Positions 3,001-53,528 of a stretch of 64,000 nt of DNA are shown here, one piece after another. The notes under the pieces were generated by a model. That model was not told the origin of the DNA, did no database searches, and saw only the letters and a list, made by a program, of their open reading frames with translations. The translations under genes and the position numbers were made by a program. Within the stretch, counting starts at the first letter, position 1. The number at the start of each line of letters is the position of its first letter. The stretch is from an uncultured Candidatus Rokubacteria bacterium (GTDB lineage: Bacteria; Methylomirabilota; Methylomirabilia; Rokubacteriales; CSP1-6): the NCBI GenBank assembly GCA_963776725.1, contig CAVZOE010000006.1:970830-1034829 (forward strand), written 5' to 3'.

Positions 3001-6000
3001 CCTCGGTCACGGTCACGTCCTGCCGGAACTCGACCTCGAAGAAGGGATGACCGCCGAGGTTGGCGGCGTCGCCGTTGGCCGTCAGCCACGGCGTTTCCAG
3101 CCGACCGTCGACCCCGTCGGCCGGCAGGAACTGCGACGAGCTGCTGCTGACCTTGACGGTGACCGGCCGCAACACCTGGGTCAGATCGCCCTGCACGGTG
3201 CCGCCAGCCAGGTCGAACGCGATGAGGTGGTTGCCGTCGCTGTGGACGGCGATGATATCCGGCACCCCGTCGCCGTCGATGTCACCCACCGCGACCTCCG
3301 ACCAGGGCGATACCAGGCCCGGGCCCAGCGTGAACAGCTCGCGGCCGTCGTCGCCGCTCAGCACCTTGATCTCGCCGGTCAGCTGGTTGCCGGTGCTCTC
3401 CACCGCCACGACGATGTCGGGAATGTCGCGCGTGTCGATGACGCCGTCGCCGTTGTCGTCGGTGAGGTTGGCCACCACCGGCGTGGAGTGCACCTCGCGG
3501 CCGGCCAGCGCCTGGAACTTCTTGGTGAGCTGGAACGCCGGCGTCGTGACCGATGCGGTGCCGAGGACCCGGATCTCCGAGAAGCCAGCCGGGAACGCGC
3601 TGCCGGCGCACGATCCCACCGTGTAGCGCGCGCTCCGCACGCCCGGCGTGGTCGGGACCGGCAGCGTGAACAGCGAGGGACCGATGCCCCGGTCGTTGAA
3701 CGGCGTGTTGACGGTTCCGCTGTCGAACAGGACCGTCCGGCCCGCATCCAGCAGCTGGAAGGTGCCGTGACAGAGGATCGGCGACGAGCTTCCGAAACCG
3801 TCCGGAGTGGCGCCCGGGTTCAGCGTCTCGATCCCGGTGACGGTGACGTCCACGGGGAAGCTGATCTCGATGAAATCCCCTTGGCCGTTGGCCGCGTACC
3901 AGCTGGTGCCCGCGCTGTCGTCGATCACGCTCTCGGGGACGTTGACGCCGATGAAGCTGCCCGCCTGCACGGTGGCCGGCAGCAGCTGCGCCAGGTTCGG
4001 CTCGGCGATACGCTGGCGGCGGATCAGCGCCGAGCCGATCACCTTCATCTCGGCCAGGTTGATGCCGAACGGGCCCTGCTCGCCGGTGAGCGGGGTGAAT
4101 CGGACGCGGCGCACGCTGGCCACGCCGGGGACGACGAGGGTCGCGTCTCGTTCGGGCAGCGGGAACTCGACGGGCCCGCTGTCGTGCAGGACGGTACCGC
4201 CGGCGCCCAGGAGCTGGAAGGTGCCGGTCGTGACCCGATTGGCCACCGGGTTACGTCCGGACAGGACCCGCACCTGGGTGACGGTGGTGTCTTGTGGAAA
4301 GACGACCTCGAAGGTCGCCGGATTGATCCCGAAGGTGCTCGCCATCGTGCCGAGGTTGTCGTCGAACGCGCAGGCGGTGCGGTCGCAGGGCGGCCCCACC
4401 ACGCCCGGGTCGCCGTTCATGTTGAACGTGGTGCCCGGGATCGCCCGGATGAGATCGACGTCGTCGGCCAGCACGAGCTCGCCGGCCTGCAGCGTGTGCG
4501 GTGTGTAGGTGAACGAGCCGTCCGCGTTGAAGGCCAGGGCGCCGTTGGTCGGCGCGGTCAGCAGCACGGCCGTCAGCGGCGTGCCGTTGGCGTCAGTGTC
4601 GTTGGCCAGCACGCCCGGCGCGCCGATGCCCAGCGATTCCCCGAGGCGTGCCGTGTAGGCGTCGTCAGCGGCCACCGGCGCCCGATTGGCGGCCGATGAA
4701 ACTTGCACCTCGAAGGCCTGGGTCGCGAACAGCCCGCGCTGGTCTTGGACCCGCACGACGATCGGCTGGGGCCCGGCCTGAGCGTCCACCGGTGTCCACC
4801 GGATGATGCCGGTGTCCGCGCCGATCGTCATGCCACCGGGCGCGATGGGCAGCGAGAACGTGAGCGCATCGCCGGCGTCAGGATCGATGGCGTCGACGCT
4901 GTAGCGGTAGGCGAGGCCGACGGTGGCGACCGTCCCCGGCGTGGAGCGGATCACCGGCGGGTGGTTGTCAACGGAGACGAGGATCGTCGTGGTCACCGGG
5001 GCGCTGGCGGCGCCGCGAGTGTCGGTGACGACGAGCTGCGCGCGATAGGTGCCGCCCAGATCGGGGACGAACGTGGGCGTGGCCGTGTTGGCGCCGACGA
5101 GTACGGTGGCGCTGTTGACCGGCCGCAGCGCGAAGGTCCACTGGAAGCTCAGCGCATCGCCCTCGGCGTCGCTCGACGCGCGCCCGTCCAGCTGCACGGT
5201 CGTGTTCGTGCTCACGTTCTGGTCGGCACCCACGCCGGCGACCGGCGGGCGATTGATCGCGGTCACCACCGCGGTGTTGTTGGTGAGGTTGGGATCGGGC
5301 TGATCGCTGCCCGTGACGGTTGCCGTGATCGCCGTCGGTCCCGTTGCGTTGACCCTGAGGCTGAGGCCCATCCGCGCCAGGCCTCCGCTCGGCAGCGCGC
5401 CCACCACCCACCGCCCGGTGGCCGCGTCGTAGGTGCCGACCTGGATGTTCTGACCGGTGATCGTGTAGCCCGCCGGCACCGGGACGCTGACGGTGATGCT
5501 GGTCGTGCTCGCCGGTCCGAGGTTGTCCACCTCGAGCGCGAGGCCCGCCGAGGTCCCGGGCGCGAGCGTGCCTTGCGGAAAATCGAAGAAGAACAGCGAT
5601 GCTGAGGTCGGCGTTGCGATTGGGCGTGACGGCGACGGTGACGGTGTTGTTGGCGGGGTTGGGGTCGGGCGCGCTGCTGCCGGTGATCGACGCGGTGAGG
5701 TCGTAGGGGCCAGTCGCGGTCACCGTCGCGCCGAGGATCAGGCGGGCGAGCCCGCCCGCGGGCAGGCTGCCGATCGTCCAGTTGCCGGTGGCGGCGTCGT
5801 ACGTGCCCACCTGCGGCCCGCCGCTGGTGATGGTGTACCCCGCCGGCACCTTGAATAGCGCGGTGATGTTGCTCGCGCTCGCAGGGCCGTCGTTGTGGAC
5901 CTCGACGAAGAGCCCGGAGGGCACGACGCCCCCGCCCACCGGCGGGTTCGTCGGCGGGCTGAGGAACGCGATGCTGAGGTCGGCGTTGCGATTGGGCGTC

Positions 6001-44396: not shown

Positions 44397-44502
44397 GTCG
44401 CCCTCCGCCACACTGCGGCGTGACGTCGACGCCGACGCCAATGGTAGCGCGCGGGGGCTCCGGCAGCCGCCAAGAGATTACGGAACGATGACGACGCGGC
44501 GG

Positions 44503-45296
44503 CTAGAGCGCGAGCAGCTCGTGCCGGAGGGCCTCGTCCTCGCGCAAGCGCGCGGAGGGGCCGCTGAAGCGGATCGACCCCTTCTCGAGCACGTAGACGC
44601 GGTCGGCGAGGGCCAGCGAGAAGTCGACGTTCTGCTCGGCCAGTAGAATCGTGAGCCCACTGCGCTTGAGCAGGGCGATCTGCTCCTGCAGGTGGTCGAC
44701 CACGAGCGGCGCCAGCCCCTCCGACGGCTCGTCGAGCAGGAGCAGCTCCGGGTTGCCCATCAGGGTGCGGGCGATGGTCAGCATCTGCTGCTCGCCGCCG
44801 GAGAGATATCCGCCCTGGCGCGAGGATAGCTCCCGCAGCTTGGGGAAGAGATCGAACACCCGCTCGGGGGTCCATTGGAGCGAAGCGTGGTTGCTCGGCT
44901 CGGGTCGTGGGTGGCCTGTTTTAGAAAGATCGCGGCTCCGTCGGCTCCGTCTAGAAGGATGGCGGCCTCGTTTGGTGGCGACGTCGAGGTTCTCCCACAC
45001 CGTGAGCTCGGCGAAGATCCGGCGGTCCTCGGGGACGAAGCCGATGCCCGGCGCGGGCGACGCGGTAGGGCGCCCAGCCGGTGATGTCGGTGCCCTTCCA
45101 GGTCACCCGGCCGTCCTGCGGCGGCGTCAGGCCGATGATCGAGCGCATGGTGGTGGACTTGCCCACGCCGTTGCGGCCGAGCAGGCAGACGCACTCGCCC
45201 GCGTTGACCTCGATCGACACGCCGAAGAGCACGCGGGACAGCCCGTAGGCGGTGTGGATCTCGTGCGACGTCGAGCAGCGGCGCGGCCGGGCTCAT
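44503..45296 (-). CDS. livF: Branched-chain amino acid ABC transporter ATPase (LivF-like) with an in-frame insertion
   Basis: GRNGVGKST; VPEDRRIF; LSGGEQQML; LDEPSEGLAP. Confidence 0.85.
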
Positions 45297-46044
45297 CGGC
45301 GCTCTCCCAGGTAGACGCGCCGCACCTCGGGGTTGGCGCGGACCTCGGCCGGGCGTGCCGTCGGCGATGACCTGCCCCTGGTGGAGCACGGTGATCCGCT
45401 GGGCGATCGAGAACACGACCTCCATGTCGTGCTCGGTGAAGAGCAGCGTCAGCCCGCGCTCGCGCGGCGATCCGCTCGACGCAGCCGGATCGTCTCGCGC
45501 GTCTCGCTCGCCGACATGCCGGCGGTCGGCTCGTCCAGCAGCAGCAGCGAGGGCTCGCTGGCCAGCGCGATCCCCAGCTCGAGCTGCTTCTGGGCGCCGT
45601 GGGACAGAAAGCCGCTCGTCTCGGCGGCGCGCTCGAGCAGGCCGAGCGAGGCCAGCAGCGCCTCCGTCTCCTCGCGATAGAGGCGCTCGACCCGGGTCCA
45701 CAGATTGCCGCCCGCGGCCGCGATGGGACAGGAAGGCCGCCTGCACGTTCTCGTGCACCGTGAGCTTCGGGAAGATGTTGGTGCGCTGGAACGAGCGTCC
45801 CATCCCGAGCCGACAGATGTCGTGGGGCGCCAGGCCGGTGACGTCGCGGCCGTCGAGGAGCACGGTGCCGGAGTCGGGCTTGCAGGTGTCCGGTGACCAG
45901 GTTGAAGAAGGTCGTCTTGCCGGCGCCGTTGGGCCCGATGATGGCGGCGATCCGGCCCCGGTCGACCTTCACGCTGACCCCGCCCACGGCCAGGAAGCCG
46001 TCGAAGCTCTTGCGGACGTCGCGGACCTCAAGCACGCCGGGCAC
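45293..46044 (-). CDS. livG: Branched-chain ABC transporter ATPase (LivG-like; indels)
   Basis: GPNGAGKTT; RSFQ; LLDEPTAGMS; EHDMEVVF; VYLG. Confidence 0.85.
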
Positions 46045-47001
46045 TCCCCAGCCGGCGCACGGCCGCCTGCGCCGCTCCCGCCAGCCCGCCGGGGAACACG
46101 AACAGCAGCACGACCAGGATCACGCCGAGCACGAACGGCCAGTACTCGGTGTAGGACGTGATCTGCTGGTTCAGGAGGATCAGCACCAGCGCGCCCAGCG
46201 CCGGGCCGTAGAACGTCCCCATGCCGCCCAGCAGCGTCATGATCAGCACCTCGGACGACTTGGTCCAGTAGGCGAAATCGGGGAAGACGCCGCGGTTGAA
46301 GATGCCGAAGAGGCCGCCGGCCAGCCCGGCGAAGGCACCGGCCAGCACGAAGGCGGCCAGCTCGTAGCGCCGCACGTTGACGCCGATGAACTCCGCGCGC
46401 TCGGCGTTCTCGCGGACGGTGGTCAGCATGCGGCCGAACGGCGAGCCGACGATCCGACGCAGGAGCCACAGGCAGAGCGCCACCATGATCACCGTGAGGA
46501 AGTAGAAGTACTCCGACGTGCGCCAGCCGCCCACCAGCGGGCAGCGCGGCGATCCGGTCGAAGTCCGGGTAGGGGATCTCCGGCATGCCCTGCTCGCCGC
46601 CGGTGACCTCGTTCCACTTGAAGCAGATGGCCCACACGATCTGGGCGAAGGCCAGCGTGAGCATGGCGAAGTAGATCCGCGTCAGCCGCACGCAGAAGAA
46701 GCCGAACACGAGCGCGAAGCCGCCGGCCACCACGCGCGGCGGCGGGGAAGGCCAGCAGGAACGGCACCGCCAGCTTCTTCATCAGCAGGCCGGTGGTGTA
46801 GGCGCCGATGCCGAAATAGGCGGCGTGGCCGAAGGACACCAGGCCGGTGACGCCCACCAGGAGATTCAGGCTGGTGGCGAACAGCGCCCAGATCACGATG
46901 TCGTTGGCCAGGAACACGTAGAAGCGCGAGCCGACCACCGGGACGAAGAACGCCGCCACGAGGATGATCGGCCCCCACGGCACGCGCGCCAGGGCCGCCA
47001 T
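46028..47001 (-). CDS. livM: Branched-chain ABC permease (LivM-like; indels)
   Basis: SLNLLVGVTGLVSFGHAAYFGIGAY; YFAMLTLAFAQ; SPFGR..RENAERA; LGGMGTFYGP. Confidence 0.85.
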
Positions 47002-47885
47002 CACTTGAGCGGCCGCCCGAGCAGGCCCCAGGGCCGGATGATCAGCACGCCGGCCATGAGGGCGAAGACGGCGAAGATCGAGAAGCGCGGAAAGAACAGG
47101 ATACCGAACGACAGCACCTGGCCGTAGATGAGCGCGCCGAGGAACGTGCCCCAGAAGGAGCCGAGGCCGCCGATGACCACCACCACGAAGGCCTCGACGA
47201 TGATCTCGGTGTCCATGCCCGGCGTGGTGGCGCGCATGGGACTGATCAGCGCGCCGCCCAGACCACCCAGGAACGAGGCGATCACGAAGACCCAGGTGTA
47301 GAGCGCGTTGACGTTGACGCCGAGCGCGCCGAGCGTCTCGCGGTCCAGCGCGGCGGCCCGGATGAAGCGTCCCACCCGCGTGCGCTGCAGCACGAACCAC
47401 ACCGCCAGCGCGATGGCCGGGCCCAGCAGGAGGATGAACAGGTTGTAGTGGGGGATGGTGGCGCCGAACAGCGTGGAGGCGCCGGTCAGCCCGGGCGGCC
47501 GGCTCACCGACTTCTGCTGCGTGCCCCAGATCATCTTGGCCCCGTCGCTCAGGATCAGCACCAGGGCGTAGGTGAACAGGAGCTGGTAGAGCTCCTCCTT
47601 GCCGTAGAGATGGCGGAAGAGCAGCAGCTCGACGAGACCGCCGAGTGCGGCGACCGCCAGCGCCGCGCCGAGCGCGGCCAGCCAGAACTTGCCGCCGCCC
47701 ACGCCCAGCCACTGCACGAACTGGTACGCGGCGTAGGCGCCCAGCATGTAGAACGTGCCGTGCGCGAAGTTCAGCACGCGGAGCACGCCGAAGATCAGCG
47801 ACAGGCCGGAGGCGATGAGGAACAGAAACATCGCGGCCGTGAGGCCGCTCAGGGACTGGGCGAAGACGAACGAGAGGTCGGGCAT
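47001..47885 (-). CDS. livH: Branched-chain ABC permease (LivH-like)
   Basis: ASGLSLIFGVLRVLNFAHG; AFVVVVIGGLGS; RPWGLLG. Confidence 0.9.
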   Translation of the reverse strand: MPDLSFVFAQSLSGLTAAMFLFLIASGLSLIFGVLRVLNFAHGTFYMLGAYAAYQFVQWLGVGGGKFWLAALGAALAVAALGGLVELLLFRHLYGKEELYQLLFTYALVLILSDGAKMIWGTQQKSVSRPPGLTGASTLFGATIPHYNLFILLLGPAIALAVWFVLQRTRVGRFIRAAALDRETLGALGVNVNALYTWVFVIASFLGGLGGALISPMRATTPGMDTEIIVEAFVVVVIGGLGSFWGTFLGALIYGQVLSFGILFFPRFSIFAVFALMAGVLIIRPWGLLGRPLK

Positions 47886-47941
47886 CGGAGCCCGCTAAAC
47901 GTAGCCGGTTGCCGGGCTGTGGTCAACGTGCGGCCCCGCCG

Positions 47942-48730
47942 TCATGTCGAGCGCGATCCGACGACGCAGCTCTGCAACGACACGCCAATCGCACCCCGAG
48001 CGTCCCAGAGCCGCGCCCGGGTCAGGCCCACGCCGTGGGCCTCGGCGACCGTGGCGGCGTCGAGCCCCAGCCAGTCGCCCGCGGGCAGACGGTGGACGGC
48101 GACCGTGAGGTCGGCGTTGACGAACGTGTGCCGCGCGGGGTCGAGCACGACGGCCAGCCCGCTGGCCGAATCGGCCACGACCAGCAGCCGCTGCAGGGGC
48201 GACGCCCGCTCGCCTTCCACCAACGCGACGCGGGGGCGCATCCACGCCATCACGGGGCCCTGGCCCCACGTGCCGCGGGCGATGCGCGTCTCCACCGAGA
48301 GGTGGTAGGCGACGGGATCGCGGAAGAACGGGAACTGAAACGGCACGGCTGAGGCCACCGGCGCGGGCGCGGGAGCGCCGTCGTCGATCGACTCGGGCAG
48401 GACGTCCGCCGTGCGCAGGGCGAGGGCCGAGGCCTGCACGACCACCGTGCCGTCGGCGGTCGCGAGCGTCGCCTGGAGGCGGCGGACCTTCGCACCCGCG
48501 CGCGTCACCTCGGCGTGAACCGTCAGGGGGGCGATCGGCACCGGGCGCAGGAAATCGAACGTCATCCGCGCCAGGAGCGCGTCGTCGCCGGCCAGCCGCT
48601 CCAGGGCCCGGACGAGGAGCGCGGCGGGGGGACCGCCGTGCTGGTGCGCCGGGCTCCACGGGCCGCGCGTCGATTCGGTGGCGACGAAGCGCTCGCCGTC
48701 GGGCACGAAGTAGGCGGAGAGGGCACTCAC
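47942..48730 (-). CDS. Acyl-CoA thioesterase (double hot-dog) family protein
   Basis: TRGPWSPAHQHGGPPAALL; FDFLRPVP; VADSASG; FVNADLTV. Confidence 0.85.
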   Translation of the reverse strand: MSALSAYFVPDGERFVATESTRGPWSPAHQHGGPPAALLVRALERLAGDDALLARMTFDFLRPVPIAPLTVHAEVTRAGAKVRRLQATLATADGTVVVQASALALRTADVLPESIDDGAPAPAPVASAVPFQFPFFRDPVAYHLSVETRIARGTWGQGPVMAWMRPRVALVEGERASPLQRLLVVADSASGLAVVLDPARHTFVNADLTVAVHRLPAGDWLGLDAATVAEAHGVGLTRARLWDARGAIGVSLQSCVVGSRST

Positions 48731-48778
48731 CGCCGCAGCGTACCAGACAACGTCCGACACTCAGCCGTGCCCGGTGAC

Positions 48779-49997
48779 CTACGGCATGATCTCGCCGCCG
48801 TTGGGATGGAGCGTCTGGCCGCAGAAGTAGCGGCTCTCGTCGGAGGCGAGGAAGACGAACGCGCCGACGAGATCGTCCGGGGCGCCGAGCCGCTTGAGCG
48901 GTAGTGAGGCCGCGTGAGCGCGCTTGGCCTCGTCGGGCAGCGGATCGAAGCCCGTGTCGATGAGCCCGGGCGCGATGCCGTTGACCAGGATGCCGTGCGG
49001 CGCCAGCTCCTGGGCGAGGGCGCGGGTGAAGGTGAGCAGGCCGCCCTTGGCCGCCGAGTACGCGGTGTAGCGGGGCCGGCCGAGATACGCGAGCTGGGAG
49101 CTCACGATGATGATGCGCCCGCTCCGCCGCGGGATCATCACGCGGGCGGCCTCGCGGGAGGTGAGGAAGGCGCCGCGGAGGTGGACGGCCATCATGCGCT
49201 CCCAGTCGGCGAGCGTCGTGTCCGTGATCGCCTGCGCCTGCTGGATGCCGGCGTTGTTCACCAGCACGTCGAGCCGGCCGAAGCGCTCGACGACGCCGCG
49301 CACGAGGGCCTGCACGTCGGTCTCGACGGTGACGTCGCAGCGGATCGCCAGCGCCGTGCGGCCGAGGGCTTCGACCTCGGCCACCAGCGAGCGGGCGTCG
49401 GGCTCGCGCGCGATCCAGCCGATCGCCACGTCGGCGCCCTCCTCCGCGTAGGCGAGGGCGACCGCCCGCCCGATGCCGGTGTTGCCGCCGGTCACGAGCG
49501 CGATCTGTCCGGCCAGGCGGCCGCGCGACGGGCGGCCGGCCTCGTCGAGCGCGCGGTGAAGCTCGCGGACGGCGGCGTCCACCGCGCTCACGTCGTCGTC
49601 GGTCCACGGGCGGCGGCCTCCCGCGTGGTGCACCGAGACCCACCCCTGCATCGCGCCGTCGCGAACGACCGGCGCCAGCACCTGGGCGGTGACGCCGAAG
49701 ACGGCCATGAGCTGCGGGGGCGGCGCCGGATCGACGCGCCCTGTCAGGTCGCTCCTGGACGAGCACCCGGCGGTTCGCCTCGAGCCAGCTGATGCTGCCG
49801 GCGGCGCGCTGATCGATCGCCGTCTGGCCTCGCAGCGACGCCGCGCCGGGCGCGAGCGCCTCGCCGGCGACGTCGTTGACGTGCAGCCCGCGCTCGGGGA
49901 GATCGATCCGGAGTGTCGTGCGCGTCGCGCGGGTGGCGACCCGCAGCGTGGCGAGGATGGCGTCGAAGCGCTCGACCAGGCGGGGCGTCGACGTCAT
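48779..49997 (-). CDS. GAF-domain / short-chain dehydrogenase fusion (indel near 49745)
   Basis: N-terminal RTTLRID..GVTAQVLAP..GWVSVHH..RPWT (GAF-like) runs in frame into VTGGNTGIG, NNAGI, YSAAK, LHPNGG. ATG overlaps the stop of the rSAM gene. Confidence 0.8.
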
Positions 49998-51873
49998 GTC
50001 GCCGACACGCCGGCGGCCGCGGGCGCCGCCGGCAATGCCAGCGCGAGGTAGTGAGCGCCATCGCGATGGACGAGCCGCGCGGCGACGCACTCATCGAGGA
50101 AGTCCTCCAGCTCGCCGGCAGGCAGATCGAAGCCGGCCGCGCGGAGCGCGACGTCCATCCGGGCCAGCGTCGTGCCGTCCTCGCACGCCAGGTACGCCGC
50201 CGCCTCGGCGGAGCCGAAGCGGTACTCGGTGGCCGCCAGCCCCGGCCGGCGGTCGGTCACGGTGAGCCCGCGCCGGTGCCGACGGTAGCGCAGCGAGCCG
50301 AACGCCGTCTCGCTGCTCGCGCGCCAGGCCTCGACCACCTCGCGGACGGGGCGCACGTAGGCGGCGGGCTCGCGCCCGTCGGCGTGGCGGTACTCGAACG
50401 TGTAGGCGAGCGCCTGCAGGGTGGCCGCATCGAGCGCGGGGTGGATGAAGCCGTAGTCCCGCCGCGGCCCTAGCGGGATCAGCCCGAACGCCTCGGGCTG
50501 CTCGTGATACGGGCTGAAGCGATCGAGCGCCAGCGGCACCAGCCGCGGCGGCTCCAGGTGGACGAGCGAGCGCATGAGGTCGGCCATGCGCGCGTACTCC
50601 TCCGGGGGCTCGCCGGGCAGGCCATAGAGGATGTTCCAGAACAGCTTCACGCCCAGCTCGGCGCACCACTTGAGCAGGCGCAGGTTCTGGAACGCCGTGA
50701 CACCCTTGCGCATCGACTTCAAGATCGGATCGCTGAGGCTCTCGACGCCGGCCTGGATCGACACGAAGCCCGCCTCGCGCAAGAGCCGCACGTCGGCCTT
50801 GGTGAGGTTGGCCTTGGTCTCGCAGAACATCCGGAGGCCGGCGCGCGCGTCGCGCAGGTGGGGCAGCACCTCGCGGAAGTAGCGCCGGTCGAGGATGTAA
50901 TCCACCACCAGGACCTGCGGCGTGTCGTAGCGCCGGGTGAGCTCGAGCAGCTCCTGCACGACGTGCTCGGGCCGCTTGCTCCGGAAGGCCAGCGCCTGAT
51001 CGCTGATGCCGCAGAACGTGCAGTGCGAGCGCGCGCCCCACCAGCACCCGCGCGCGCTCTCGTAGAGCAGCGTCACGCGGGGACGGAGCTCGGCGGCGGC
51101 GGGCGACGTTTCGAGACGGGCGAAGTAGGCTTCGTAGCGTGGCGTCGGGGTGTCGTCGAGCGCGACCGGGTCCCCGCCTTCGGGGACGACCACCGAGCGC
51201 TCGCCGTCGCGGTAGCACAGCCCAGCCTGCGGCCGGCAGGGACCGCCGGCGAGGAAGTCCTTCACGAGCCCGGGCAGCACGCGCTCGCCCTCACCGCGGA
51301 CGACGGCGTCCACCCAGGGAAACGCGCGGTGCAGCGCCGCGCCCATCTCGCCCTGGCAGTTGGCGCCGCCGAGGATCACGCGGACGTCGGGCAGGCGAGC
51401 CTTGAGCTGCCGGGCCAGCGCCAGCGAGGCGACGGTCTGATGGCGCCGGTGGTGAAGCCGACGACGGCCGGCGCCGCGGCCGCCAGCGCGTCGGTGCATC
51501 GATCGAGGAACGAGGGCACGAGGCGCGCGAAAGCGTCGCGCGATCGTCGATGTCGCGCTCGGCGACCGGATGCTCGCGCAGCCAGCCGGACGTAGCCGGC
51601 GTCGCTGTCGGCGGCGGGCTCGGTGAAGATCCAGTCGCCGAGGCCGACGTCGCGCGAGAGCTCCACCACGAGGTCGTAGTCGGCGACGCCGAGCCGCTCT
51701 GCCGGCGGCCCCTCGGCGGTGAGGGCCATGCAGTGATCGAGGAAGTCCAGCCCGAGGCAGTGCACCTCGGCGCCGATGCCGTCGCGCTCCAGCACGGCTT
51801 GCAAGATCGCCAGCTGGATCGGCGGATGCTCGAGCTGATCCCAGGGCATCGAGATCAGCCACACGCGGCTCAT
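49994..51873 (-). CDS. RiPP-maturation B12-binding radical SAM C-methyltransferase (rSAM_ocin/Btm/Poy-like; indels at about 51550-51440)
   Basis: MSRVWLISMPW..PPIQLAILQA; B12 domain LGGANCQGEMG..VVRGEGE; ESARGCWWGARSHCTFCG (CX7CX2C); ETKANL; IQAGVESL; WNILYGLPGE; LDRFSPY; C-terminal RRE-like winged helix ending YLALAL. Confidence 0.9.
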
Positions 51874-51895
51874 TCGCCGGCCGTCCGGAGCGGGG

Positions 51896-52132
51896 TCAGG
51901 ACGGGCGGGGAGTCTGCAAGGCCGGCCCCACGGGGACGTACGGCGGCGCGAACGTCGGCAGGGGTGTCGGTCGCGTGCTCTTCAGCGCGGCCTGCTGGCT
52001 CGGCGAGAGGGACGCGTCCCCGCCCTTGACCTTCTTCTTGGCCGGCAGGTCGCGCAGCGGCTTCTTGCGGAGCTTGAGCGACTTCCTGGCCGAGCCCTTG
52101 GTGGCCTTCTTCTTCGCCTTCTTCTTCGCCAT
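51896..52132 (-). CDS. Candidate RiPP precursor peptide: 38-aa Lys-rich leader ending VKGG, 40-aa Pro-rich core
   Basis: GGAGG SD; MAKKKAKKKATKGSARKSLKLRKKPLRDLPAKKKVKGG|DASLSPSQQAALKSTRPTPLPTFAPPYVPVGPALQTPRPS; ends 22 nt before the rSAM start. Confidence 0.8.
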   Translation of the reverse strand: MAKKKAKKKATKGSARKSLKLRKKPLRDLPAKKKVKGGDASLSPSQQAALKSTRPTPLPTFAPPYVPVGPALQTPRPS

Positions 52133-52160
52133 GCCCGCCCTCCCGGAGCTGGATCGCGCG

Positions 52161-52190
52161 ATCCTAGCAGGCAGCCGGCGGTATTGTCAT
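52161..52190 (-). promoter_or_regulatory. Sigma70-like promoter for the precursor/rSAM unit
   Basis: ATGACA-N18-TAGGAT with extended TG, ending 28 nt upstream of the ATG at 52132. Confidence 0.5.
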
Positions 52191-52340
52191 GGCGCCCCAC
52201 GAAGCCGCGAGCCGCGAGGTGCGAGAGCCGGGATAGGCAGACCTCGGATATCCACCGAACACTGCGCGGCTCGCTGGCTATCTGGGCGGCGAGCCGCGAG
52301 AACCGGGCGGCGGCCTGTACGAGCGTCGCCGCCGGAGCGA

Positions 52341-53528
52341 TCAGTCCATGAACTTCGTCGGATCGACGTAGGTGACGGGCTTCATGATCGGGAACGGGTA
52401 CTTCGGATCCATCACGGTCTTGCCGTACAGCTGGCCGCGGTTGGCCTGATGGTCCTTTTCGCGGATCGTCTGCGGGCCGATCGGCGTCTCGATCGTCAGG
52501 CCGAGCAGCGCCTTGGCGACCTTGTCGGAATCCGTGCTGTTGGCCTTCTTGATGGCCTCGACCAGGAACTGCATGCCGGTGTAGCCCTGGATGGCCCACG
52601 ACGACGGGTACTCGTCCTTCAGGTACTTCGACAGCCGGGCGGTGTAGTCCTTGTGGGCCTGCGTCTCGCCCCAGTAGAAGGCGTCGTAGGAGTTGCCCCA
52701 GATGCCGACCGGGTAGTCGGCGCCCATCGACTTGGTCGTTTCCGGCGTGGCCGCCTCGCCGAGGCCCAGGAAGTTGTAGTGGATCGCGTCGAACACGCCG
52801 AGGGCCTTGGCCTGCTTGGAGTAGGTGACGAAGAAGCCGCCCCAGATGGACGACACGATGGCCTCGGGCTTCTTGGCCATCTGGGCGTTGATGAACGGGT
52901 TGTAGTCCTGCTCGCCGAGCTTGGGCCACTGCTGGTCGACGATCTGCACGCTCGGCTTGAGCTTCTTGATGTGCTCCACGAACGCCTTGGTCACGTCCTG
53001 GCCGTAGGCGTAGTCGAAGGCGATGGTCGCGATCTTGGTGACCGGCCACTTGGCCACGATCTCGGCCGCGCTGCGGCCCTCCATCGTGGTGTTGGCCGCG
53101 ATGCGGAAGACGTAGGGGTGCAGCTTGTCGGCGGCGGTGAGCTGGTCGGTCTTGGGGATCGGCGCGATGAAGACGATCTTGTTTTCCTTGGCCACGACCG
53201 AGACCGCCGGGCCCTCGGCCGAGGTGAGCGTGCCGACCAGGAAGTCGACGTTGTCCTTCAGGATCAGCTCGCGCGCCTGCCGCACCGCTTCGTTGGCGTC
53301 CGCCTTGGAGTCGCGCACGAGCAGCTCGATCTTGCGCCCGAGCACGCCACCCTTGGCGTTGATCTCCTCGACGTACATCATGGCGCCCTTGGAGGCGGGG
53401 TCGCCGAACAGCGCGGGCGGGCCGGACAGCGGGATCGGCATGCCGACCTTGATGGGCTTCTGGGCGTGGGCGGTGAGGGGCACGGCCAGGACCGCGATCA
53501 GCAGCAGGATCAGCCAGGAACGACGCAT
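52341..53528 (-). CDS. Branched-chain-type ABC substrate-binding protein
   Basis: Signal MRRSWLILLLIAVLAVPLTAHA; KVGMPIPLSG; INAKGGVLGRKIEL; DYAYGQD. Confidence 0.92.
   Translation of the reverse strand: MRRSWLILLLIAVLAVPLTAHAQKPIKVGMPIPLSGPPALFGDPASKGAMMYVEEINAKGGVLGRKIELLVRDSKADANEAVRQARELILKDNVDFLVGTLTSAEGPAVSVVAKENKIVFIAPIPKTDQLTAADKLHPYVFRIAANTTMEGRSAAEIVAKWPVTKIATIAFDYAYGQDVTKAFVEHIKKLKPSVQIVDQQWPKLGEQDYNPFINAQMAKKPEAIVSSIWGGFFVTYSKQAKALGVFDAIHYNFLGLGEAATPETTKSMGADYPVGIWGNSYDAFYWGETQAHKDYTARLSKYLKDEYPSSWAIQGYTGMQFLVEAIKKANSTDSDKVAKALLGLTIETPIGPQTIREKDHQANRGQLYGKTVMDPKYPFPIMKPVTYVDPTKFMD

Follow-up and report, generated by a model that had tools for sequence, protein, structure and literature searches.

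The stretch analysed here (the window; 64,000 nt, G000:C6:970830-1034829) comes from an assembly of 7.17 Mb in 37 contigs with 72% completeness, whose nearest named relatives are metagenome-assembled genomes (MAGs) of Candidatus Methylomirabilia / Methylomirabilota. Its minus strand carries a genuine cassette of the type that makes peptides made by ribosomes and modified after translation (RiPPs). The first gene, an open reading frame (ORF) of 78 aa, encodes the precursor peptide; the second encodes a cobalamin (B12)-dependent radical S-adenosylmethionine (SAM) enzyme, which belongs to the known family TIGR03975. The precursor family, its core motif and the two-gene architecture are undescribed in the libraries and literature searched (full texts). 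The two genes lie as the initial annotation of this DNA had placed them: the stop codon of the peptide ORF ends at 51896 and the ATG of the radical SAM gene is at 51873, which leaves a gap of 22 nt.

The features of the locus are collected in Table 1. The promoter-like motif noticed earlier ahead of the peptide ORF is indeed present and is the sole sigma-70-like site in 47800-52500, against a mean of 0.1 sites in shuffled sequences. A scan of 47800-52600 with Rfam returned no cobalamin riboswitch or other family, and one chance microRNA match only.

Table 1. Features of the cassette and its surroundings (window positions).
Feature	Position	Strand	Evidence
Predicted sigma-70-like promoter site, ATGACA-18 nt-TAGGAT, TG before the -10	52161..52190	-	Consensus match alone
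Precursor peptide ORF, 78 aa plus stop	51896..52132	-	Coding signals, homologues, in-frame length differences
Leader (residues 1-38) with Lys-rich N-terminus, LKLRKKPLRDLP block and terminal VKGG	52019..52132	-	Conservation in alignment
Conserved core motif FAPPYVPVGP, residues 61-70	51923..51952	-	Conservation in 56 sequences
TIGR03975 (PoyB/PoyC-type) cobalamin-dependent radical SAM gene, two frames in the assembly	49994..51873	-	NCBIfam
Cluster of four 1-nt indels (three extra bases, one missing)	51442..51590	.	Comparison with L013, L030, L122, L123 and L124
CX7CX2C iron-sulfur cluster motif, CWWGARSHCTFC	51011..51046	-	Sequence
Candidate winged helix like a RiPP recognition element (RRE), enzyme C-terminus (three strands, three helices, hairpin)	49997..50296	-	Model, PqqD, VIA-align
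GAF-SDR gene, ATG overlapping the enzyme stop (ATGA); variable neighbour, frame broken near 49753	48779..49997	-	
Acyl-CoA thioesterase-like gene, neighbour only	47942..48760	-	Pfam 4HBT_3 and 4HBT_3C

Precursor peptide and enzyme

The window has a G+C content of 71.7% and 94 ORFs of at least 40 aa within 14 kb, and since DNA of about 72% G+C is rich in open frames, a bare frame of 78 aa is little informative. The peptide ORF is a conserved coding gene because of its codon and lysine bias, its homologues and its in-frame length differences. Its G+C content at third codon positions is 0.96, its 16 lysine codons are all AAG, and lysine makes up 39% of the leader versus 1.5% of the other likely coding frames of the window. 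A set of 5.8 billion proteins holds 63 homologues at E <= 0.01, all of them unnamed or 'hypothetical' bar one labelled TonB. The length differences from the orthologue inside the ORF are 12, 9 and 3 nt, each divisible by three. No family of Pfam or NCBIfam matches the window peptide at E <= 0.01.

The peptide is bipartite. Residues 1-38 contain 15 lysines and end in VKGG, and residues 39-78 contain 10 prolines and no cysteine, exactly the composition counted before. Conservation was read from an alignment (A2) of the window peptide and 55 homologues, P0037, P0040, P0041, P0047, P0051, P0053, P0054 and P0058 having been left out for length or low coverage. In these 56 sequences the LKLRKKPLRDLP block, the VKGG end (V35, K36, G37 and G38) and the motif F61-A-P-P-Y-V-P-V-x-P70 are each at least 90% conserved; within the motif this applies to F61, A62, P63, P64, Y65, V66, V68 and P70, while P67 is invariant. 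The segment that separates GG from this motif differs in length among the members. The initial annotation had expected variable cores behind a constant leader, which does not hold for the subfamily of the window, where FAPPYVPV.P is nearly invariant, and the motif is likely the modification site or the pharmacophore of the product. One locus (L032) encodes an acidic, differently charged leader, yet has the APPYVPVGP core.

The leader extends beyond this subfamily. The same leader architecture occurs beside nine other TIGR03975 enzymes, and an alignment of ten peptides shows that M1, A2, D28 and VKGG are invariant in front of unrelated cores. When these ten family peptides were scanned at E <= 10, no NHLP or Nif11 model was found, and only lanthipeptide-leader models and two unrelated models matched. 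The lanthipeptide matches were weak: NF038158 (L1b) in three of ten, with a best E of 0.0013, and NF038153 (L1a) in two of ten, with a best E of 0.00074. The window peptide itself matched neither model.

The comparison with TIGR03975 that had been proposed for the radical SAM gene gave a result above the cut-off of 281.85 bits: the two frames of the window gene scored 65.7 bits (hidden Markov model (HMM) positions 1-136) and 484.7 bits (HMM 139-606), and the intact orthologue of 88-89% identity (L013) scored 582.6 bits over HMM 1-606. NCBIfam names this family 'RiPP maturation radical SAM C-methyltransferase'. The CX7CX2C motif is present as claimed, and its CWWG...HC.FC form is retained in all 23 full-length homologues extracted. 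According to a statement in a review, Cx7Cx2C is unique to PoyC, a valine C-methylase (PMC11285071).

An AlphaFold model of the orthologous enzyme, built with 23 aligned sequences, reached a predicted local distance difference test score (pLDDT) of 92.1. The best folds for this model in the PDB are the cobalamin radical SAM enzymes TsrM, TokK, OxsB, CysS and MgmA, and the first four aligned over 540-590 columns with E values from 1e-16 to 1e-13. The predicted structure is thus that of a class B radical SAM enzyme with an N-terminal cobalamin-binding domain. The Pfam B12-binding model gave 21.8 bits on the window fragment, below its cut-off of 32.1, and the nearest solved chain by sequence profile is again TokK, a distant one (E 8e-17).

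For residues ~527-612 of the orthologue, the predicted fold consists of three strands and three helices plus a hairpin. In the numbering of the separate domain model (pLDDT 91.4) the strands are 10-15, 18-23 and 31-36, the helices 37-45, 52-61 and 68-80, and the hairpin 84-93; the full-length model shows the same elements at 527-610. Pfam PqqD (PF05402) matches eight of the 23 homologous C-terminal domains, with a best E of 4.2e-6. With VIA-align, the domain model superposed on the lasso-peptide RRE TbiB1 with its leader (5v1u_A) with a Z score of 8.8 and a root mean square deviation of 2.3 for 77 of 84 residues aligned, and on a second lasso-peptide RRE solved with its leader (6jx3_B) with a Z score of 7.9.

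Pairing in relatives and export

The scan of 251 genomes of the phylum found the leader model in 16 and TIGR03975 in 12. Going by coordinates, nine of the ten TIGR03975 loci of the genus have a leader-family peptide within ~60 nt; the tenth, the exception, is a partial match (HMM 97-307) from a genome that is 62% complete. In the peptide screen, a leader-like ORF stands beside every enzyme match in the genus apart from the G012 fragment. Close homologues of the enzyme are present in nine genomes among 41 relatives. In metagenomes, 80 loci were collected, 20 of them with the peptide type of the window, and in all 13 window-type loci with at least 700 nt downstream a full TIGR03975-like gene begins 20-45 nt past the peptide stop. 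The expectation that short Lys-rich ...VKGG ORFs would be found beside homologous radical SAM genes was therefore borne out at nine of ten genus loci and at all 13 of these metagenome loci.

A second cassette of the genome lies at G000:C5:296883-298883 (L004:1350-3350). Its TIGR03975 gene, read in three frames, is preceded at a distance of 14 nt by a Lys-rich ...KDL...VKGG peptide whose core has 7 aa. No other ORF of the genome has the FAPPYVPVGP motif. Over the 80 genome contig loci, the leader profile also found members in Acidobacteriota (L034, and L041 with up to six copies) and in a Kofleriaceae MAG, with weak matches in three further Acidobacteriota loci (L037, L038 and L033); a looser screen added small GG-ended ORFs in L032, L039, L044 and L047. 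The hosts of the family are Methylomirabilota, Acidobacteriota and Myxococcota. The flanking genes vary from locus to locus (AMP-binding, ComA, M48, UbiD, HpaB and others), and the peptide-enzyme pair alone is conserved.

Of the seven enzyme-bearing genomes outside the genus, five have no leader-model match at all in the scan of 251 genomes; G188, G202 and G240 are wholly without a match at E <= 1e-3, and the peptide screens were negative for the surroundings of the more distant TIGR03975 genes in genus g17 (G034 and G038) and of the G012 fragment. The substrates, if any, of these distant TIGR03975 enzymes are of another kind. In G202, a 223-aa protein with a Lys-rich C-terminus is encoded upstream of the enzyme instead. 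One locus of the same order, G034:C4:336293-343936 (L121), has four tandem TIGR03975 genes, for which the screens showed no Lys-rich GG-leader peptide.

A tree of 32 enzymes (IQ-TREE) grouped the eight enzymes encoded beside (F)APPYVPV cores in one clade with an ultrafast bootstrap (UFBoot) of 100 and a Shimodaira-Hasegawa-like approximate likelihood ratio (SH-aLRT) of 99. This clade includes the L032 enzyme, whose peptide has the acidic leader; the L197 enzyme was not extracted and is absent from the tree. Enzymes with cores of the '...VK/IK...' type fall in other clades. The tree is evidence for an enzyme clade matched to the core motif, and since the two appear to be matched, FAPPYVPVGP is the likely site of action.

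A C39 peptidase-ATP-binding cassette (ABC) exporter, for which a search of the genome had been suggested, was found on another contig. The sole PF03412 (C39) match of the genome (113.1 bits, C4:221117) falls within a frame-split peptidase-containing ABC transporter (PCAT) with an N-terminal domain that binds cyclic nucleotides (cNMP) (G000:C4:219000-226000; L113:8001-14693). It is followed by an HlyD-like gene and by small ORFs, three or four in number, whose leaders are related. The same layout of PCAT, HlyD and peptide array, with intact genes, is found in G005 (C4, L119) and G006 (C4, L116). TIGR03796, the NHLP family bacteriocin exporter, is among the top two models for these PCATs at 540-560 bits, below its cut-off of 853. 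In L036 the cassette itself has a PCAT as its direct neighbour, one with two cNMP-binding domains. Core themes that recur across phyla in the arrays are ...LPYIEQ... and ...ITDGTSNT....

The suggested search for further precursors returned 12 leader-family ORFs at E <= 0.1 in the six-frame scan. One of them, on C11 (G000:C11:81496-81663; L115, ~5006-5170 minus), stands directly before another radical SAM gene (L115:3581-5002 minus), which encodes a protein of 474 aa with Fer4_12 and has SPASM-type peptide maturases as best NCBIfam hits, all below cut-off and TIGR04148 among them. The initial annotation had described a dedicated pair of precursor and enzyme. This has to be corrected as to the leader, which is not reserved for the TIGR03975 enzyme: it is also used in arrays linked to an exporter and next to a radical SAM gene of the SPASM type, and so behaves as a platform. 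Such reuse points to a 'platform leader' of a third kind, in addition to NHLP and Nif11.

Proposed pathway and competing explanations

We propose that the two genes form a RiPP cassette in which a precursor with a double-glycine leader is C-methylated in its core motif by the TIGR03975 enzyme and then cleaved and exported, a reading to which we give a probability of about 0.7. The pathway would begin with the 78-aa precursor and its Lys-rich double-glycine leader (residues 1-38). The enzyme would bind the precursor, probably through its predicted C-terminal RRE-like winged helix, and with cobalamin and SAM would most likely C-methylate one or more unactivated carbons in FAPPYVPVGP. Cleavage after VKGG and export would follow, most likely by the single C39 peptidase-ABC exporter with HlyD that is encoded on the other contig. 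Cobalamin-dependent C-methylation is the most likely chemistry by the family name and the PoyC-type motif; conservation and the enzyme tree point to FAPPYVPVGP as the putative site, and the GG motif together with the PCAT-linked arrays suggests cleavage and export in trans. Binding of the precursor by the enzyme and a bioactivity of the product are what we infer from this arrangement.

Several observations weigh against this proposal. The RRE-like C-terminus, a claim of the initial annotation, stands as to its fold and as to the PqqD matches of the eight relatives, but the orthologue's own domain has no PqqD match at E <= 1, its RRE structural scores are tied with those of generic winged helices (top Z 9.4), and Foldseek against the PDB returned generic winged helices only (best E 5e-3), so that the domain is RRE-like by prediction and not proven. 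The matches of the leader to described leader models are weak (E about 1e-3), and the hydrophobic spacing before GG differs, on our reading of the alignment, from the textbook double-glycine pattern. The groups compared in the enzyme tree were defined by the feature that was counted, and related enzymes share their labels and are not independent. As stated earlier, the window holds no C39 peptidase or exporter, and the PCAT of the genome is split into several frames. As a hint of expression, contigs from RNA libraries cover the peptide ORF, and one of 629 nt joins a variant peptide to the 5' end of the enzyme gene; these contigs are no proof of transcription, as depth, strand and transcript ends are unreadable from contigs and carry-over of DNA in RNA libraries is possible. 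The core motif is also found in larger proteins at 33 loci, only five of which have a B12 radical SAM gene within 4-kb flanks, and for this reason the motif alone does not imply this modification.

The chemistry is the next point. According to one review, the reactions of B12 radical SAM enzymes also include ring contraction and the formation of thioethers, and more than half of the radical SAM classes have no validated function (PMC12931638). Since class B enzymes do such other chemistry, methylation is not certain. A real pairing that serves some other radical reaction, such as a cross-link or a rearrangement, is unlikely, but of the alternatives it is the one that survives best. It is favoured by the non-methylating class B members OxsB, BchE and ThnL and by the many uncharacterised classes mentioned in the same review (PMC12931638). 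It is also favoured by the distance of the nearest solved structures, with a profile E of 8e-17 or weaker. Against these points, TIGR03975 is a named C-methyltransferase family and the enzyme lies far above its cut-off; the Cys-free core makes a thioether impossible; and the core holds Val, Pro and Phe, residue types that are said to be methylated in bottromycin or polytheonamide. The CX7CX2C motif is common to this enzyme and, by the review cited above for it, the valine C-methylase PoyC, and methylated residues named in that review are Pro in bottromycin and Ile, Val and Met in polytheonamide (PMC11285071).

The division of the precursor may have been drawn wrongly, with the Lys-rich part either kept in the product as a polycationic arm for uptake or membrane binding, or cut elsewhere, which we regard as improbable. 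A lysine content of 39% is unusual for a leader, the hydrophobic spacing is as described, the ~22 residues between GG and the motif show conservation of their own (SLSPSQQAAL) and might serve as another region for recognition or cleavage, and the cassette encodes no peptidase. The VKGG end, however, is conserved both in the 56 sequences and in the ten peptides with differing cores; in the natural short members L197, L163, L179 and L192 the motif begins 0-4 residues past GG; and in three genomes the PCAT-HlyD genes are directly followed by arrays of peptides whose leaders are related.

That the cassette is dead in this genome, its enzyme gene being a pseudogene through four frameshifts, is very improbable. 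The initial annotation had hinted that the enzyme needs indel correction, and four single-base indels were located: extra bases near 51585-51590, 51544-51547 and 51523-51524 and a missing base near 51442-51443. They are clustered within ~150 nt, with none elsewhere in the gene body in comparison with the orthologues L013/L030 (86% nucleotide identity), and the remainder of the gene is stop-free. The clustering counts in favour of decay, and L132:1293-1963 offers a possible case of natural decay of a cassette: its peptide is intact, with the leader block duplicated, but is followed by enzyme remnants only (HMM 4-91 and 589-624). On the other side stand three short-read contigs of the Joint Genome Institute (L122-L124), which are 97.3-98.0% identical to the window over 3,495 nt. 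Their frame-breaking differences from it are limited to six single bases, namely the four in the enzyme gene, one at ~52176 in the non-coding leader region and one at ~49753 in the next gene, and the enzyme of L123 and L124 is intact (865 bits to an in-house family profile).

Public sequencing runs point in the same direction. The corrections are present in Logan contigs of two DNA runs (X1 and X3) and two RNA-library runs (X15 and X16), and one 370-nt contig of X3 shows four gaps across the indel cluster. None of the public runs holds half of the sampled words of the stretch; the best share is 0.47, and the RNA runs have 0.07-0.10. In the same assembly, which has only 72% completeness, the second TIGR03975 gene is spread over three frames, and the PCAT too is split between several. 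Genes of a branched-chain amino-acid ABC transporter (ATPase and permease parts) in 44500-47900 of the window also look frame-split in a reading of the ORF list. Since the ABC transporter and GAF-SDR frames are broken too, the assembly appears to contain many single-base indels. The four indels are thus probably consensus errors and not decay, because near-identical contigs lack them, the Logan contigs correct them and other genes are split as well.

Least of all do we credit that the small ORF encodes a basic protein (histone-like or ribosome-associated) that merely lies beside the enzyme gene, since its composition is indeed like that of basic nucleic-acid-binding tails and leader-family ORFs do occur without a nearby TIGR03975 gene (G006 has three matches and no such enzyme), but the adjacency of peptide and enzyme is strict across relatives, the enzyme clades track the core types, the paralogues keep a GG-ended leader in front of short and differing cores, and the members without the enzyme follow PCAT-HlyD exporters or precede another peptide-modifying radical SAM gene.

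The proposed C-methylated RiPP may be compared with known systems. The PoyB/PoyC enzymes of polytheonamide, a proteusin, share with the window enzyme the TIGR03975 model, the CX7CX2C motif, the class B fold and, on the proposed pathway, a ribosomal peptide as substrate; their membership in TIGR03975 is taken from the family name and the shared motif. The window leader is not of the NHLP or Nif11 type, and the core is short, Pro-rich and conserved, whereas that of polytheonamide is long and rich in Val and Gly. The adjoining genes also differ: they encode a solute-binding protein and GAF-SDR, and no epimerase, dehydratase or N-methyltransferase is adjacent, although no search was aimed at an epimerase.

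Bottromycin is methylated on Val and Phe, and its biosynthesis involves a follower peptide and YcaO chemistry. It resembles the window system in the C-methylation of a ribosomal peptide by B12 radical SAM enzymes, BotRMT1-3, and FAPPYVPVGP holds Pro, Val and Phe. BotRMT1-3 are listed among the B12 radical SAM enzymes in a review (PMC12931638). The window enzyme belongs to another family by model (TIGR03975).

The NHLP and Nif11 'platform' leaders were reportedly described by Haft and co-workers in 2010 together with PCAT exporters that have cNMP domains. As in those systems, one leader family precedes many unrelated cores, is found with differing maturases and would be exported by a PCAT in trans. 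The window leader differs in that it has ~35-45 residues, is Lys-rich and matches neither model, and the PCATs score below the TIGR03796 cut-off. Short Lys-rich GG leaders of Bacteroidota-type class I lanthipeptide and radical-SAM systems (NF038153, NF038158 and TIGR04148-type) have in common with it a basic N-terminus, a hydrophobic/charged block and a (V/I)KGG end. Here, by contrast, lanthipeptide enzymes are absent from the vicinity, the partner is a B12 radical SAM enzyme, and the hosts are members of the Methylomirabilota, Acidobacteriota and Myxococcota. A resemblance to the proline-rich antimicrobial peptides of insects, which we take to be a Pro-rich core with a PPY-hydrophobic-P stretch, is a lead only; origin, length and charge differ, and the window peptide is probably modified.

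If the proposed pathway is right, this precursor family supplies the substrate for at least part of the TIGR03975 enzymes in Methylomirabilota, Acidobacteriota and Myxococcota, soil phyla rich in uncultured members, and it could account for many seemingly orphan enzymes of this type. Genome-mining rules do flag TIGR03975 enzymes, but the clusters are often discarded. A sponge-microbiome study dropped all clusters called by the TIGR03975 rule of antiSMASH as likely false positives, for which it cites manual inspection only (PMC9426513). It is our guess that unannotated precursors contribute to such dismissals. A TIGR03975 cluster is given among the most expressed ones on glacier ice in another study (PMC12350317). 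With two genes, a short and near-invariant core and natural versions down to 11 residues, the cassette would be a convenient system for studying PoyC-type recognition and methylated carbons.

Motif in other proteins and neighbouring genes

The larger proteins with the core motif belong to an unnamed family of ~230-320 aa, in which TFAPPYVPVGPV, often followed by x-G-D-N, is the C-terminal motif. Their loci are L139-L201, for example L142:3245-4120, L151:3137-4087 and L147:3410-4111. The Atlas clusters of this family are named 'hypothetical' and come mostly from Myxococcota, and no Pfam or NCBIfam model matches it at E below 0.005. Two forms can be told apart. Form 2a (33 loci) has a B12 radical SAM gene downstream in three of the 26 loci with room for it. 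The form ending in ...FAGPRFGK... (2b) has a different B12 radical SAM gene downstream in all eight loci with room, and also in L195 and L200; this enzyme, of a family unrelated to that of the window enzyme, fits no NCBIfam model, the best being ApyD with 135 bits against a cut-off of 750. Near form 2b, either a methyltransferase is encoded, or a second B12 enzyme together with a PhyH oxygenase. The motif is further found behind other GG leaders (L196, L199 and L169) and, in L172, behind a weak NHLP-like leader match (E 3.6e-5, 23.5 bits, cut-off 50.9).

A link of the proteins with FAPPYVPVGPV tails to type VI secretion was considered and is weakened by the small number of type VI-like neighbours: DUF2169 was found in four loci (three of the 33 of type 2a, and L146), and Phage_base_V (VgrG-like) in one of the seven loci scanned. 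Weak type VI likeness was also seen among the peptides. With the Hcp model, three of the five sub-threshold matches in the genome fall on leader-family ORFs, namely G000:C4:572001-572189 (L204:1390-1578), C18:524035-524214 and C37:668669-669049, with weak matches to HMM 1-34 (E 1e-3), 37-69 (E 8e-3) and 62-86 (E 0.056). A leader ORF of another genome (G006:C1:343573-343737) matches Hcp HMM 39-72 with an E of 5e-4, and the best Tox-PAAR-like match in G224 (C746:3912-4127, L117; HMM 13-37; E 0.045) is the core of a family peptide. A tblastn search of plasmids with the first Hcp-like peptide gave weak matches only (E 0.4-7); among the 15 listed, six coincide with features annotated as the Hcp tube protein, and for the other nine no feature is listed.

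That these weak type VI matches coincide with a few short leader-family ORFs is notable. In the literature search no paper was found on the motif in other proteins or on Hcp-like cores behind GG leaders. A doubtful extension would be that the leader is an export platform for short peptides that copy conserved parts of contractile-injection (type VI secretion) proteins, and that radical SAM enzymes harden some of these peptides. They could act as decoys or assembly poisons against the injection machines of competitors or attackers, unlike classical bacteriocins, which act on membranes. Should the link to type VI secretion be true, the likeness of the cores would indicate a new kind of interbacterial peptide.

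Among the neighbouring genes, the GAF-SDR gene is intact in L122 as one frame of 405 aa with GAF (29.6 bits) and SDR, and in comparison with the near-identical contigs the window copy has an extra base at ~49753. The pair of GAF-SDR and thioesterase-like genes was tried as a conserved part of the system and rejected, as the SDR is missing downstream in L125, L126, L131 and L136, where tblastn found none in the 0.9-2.1 kb after the enzyme; in L013/L030, the ~100 nt after the enzyme stop do not encode the GAF-SDR start. Because GAF-SDR is not conserved after the enzyme in these relatives, the minimal two-gene reading of the initial annotation holds. The GAF-SDR and thioesterase-like pair does follow the enzyme in L122-L124 and in L135 (91% identity), the thioesterase-like gene being kept in L122 and L124. 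On the other side of the cassette, the upstream neighbour encodes a Peripla_BP_6 solute-binding protein.

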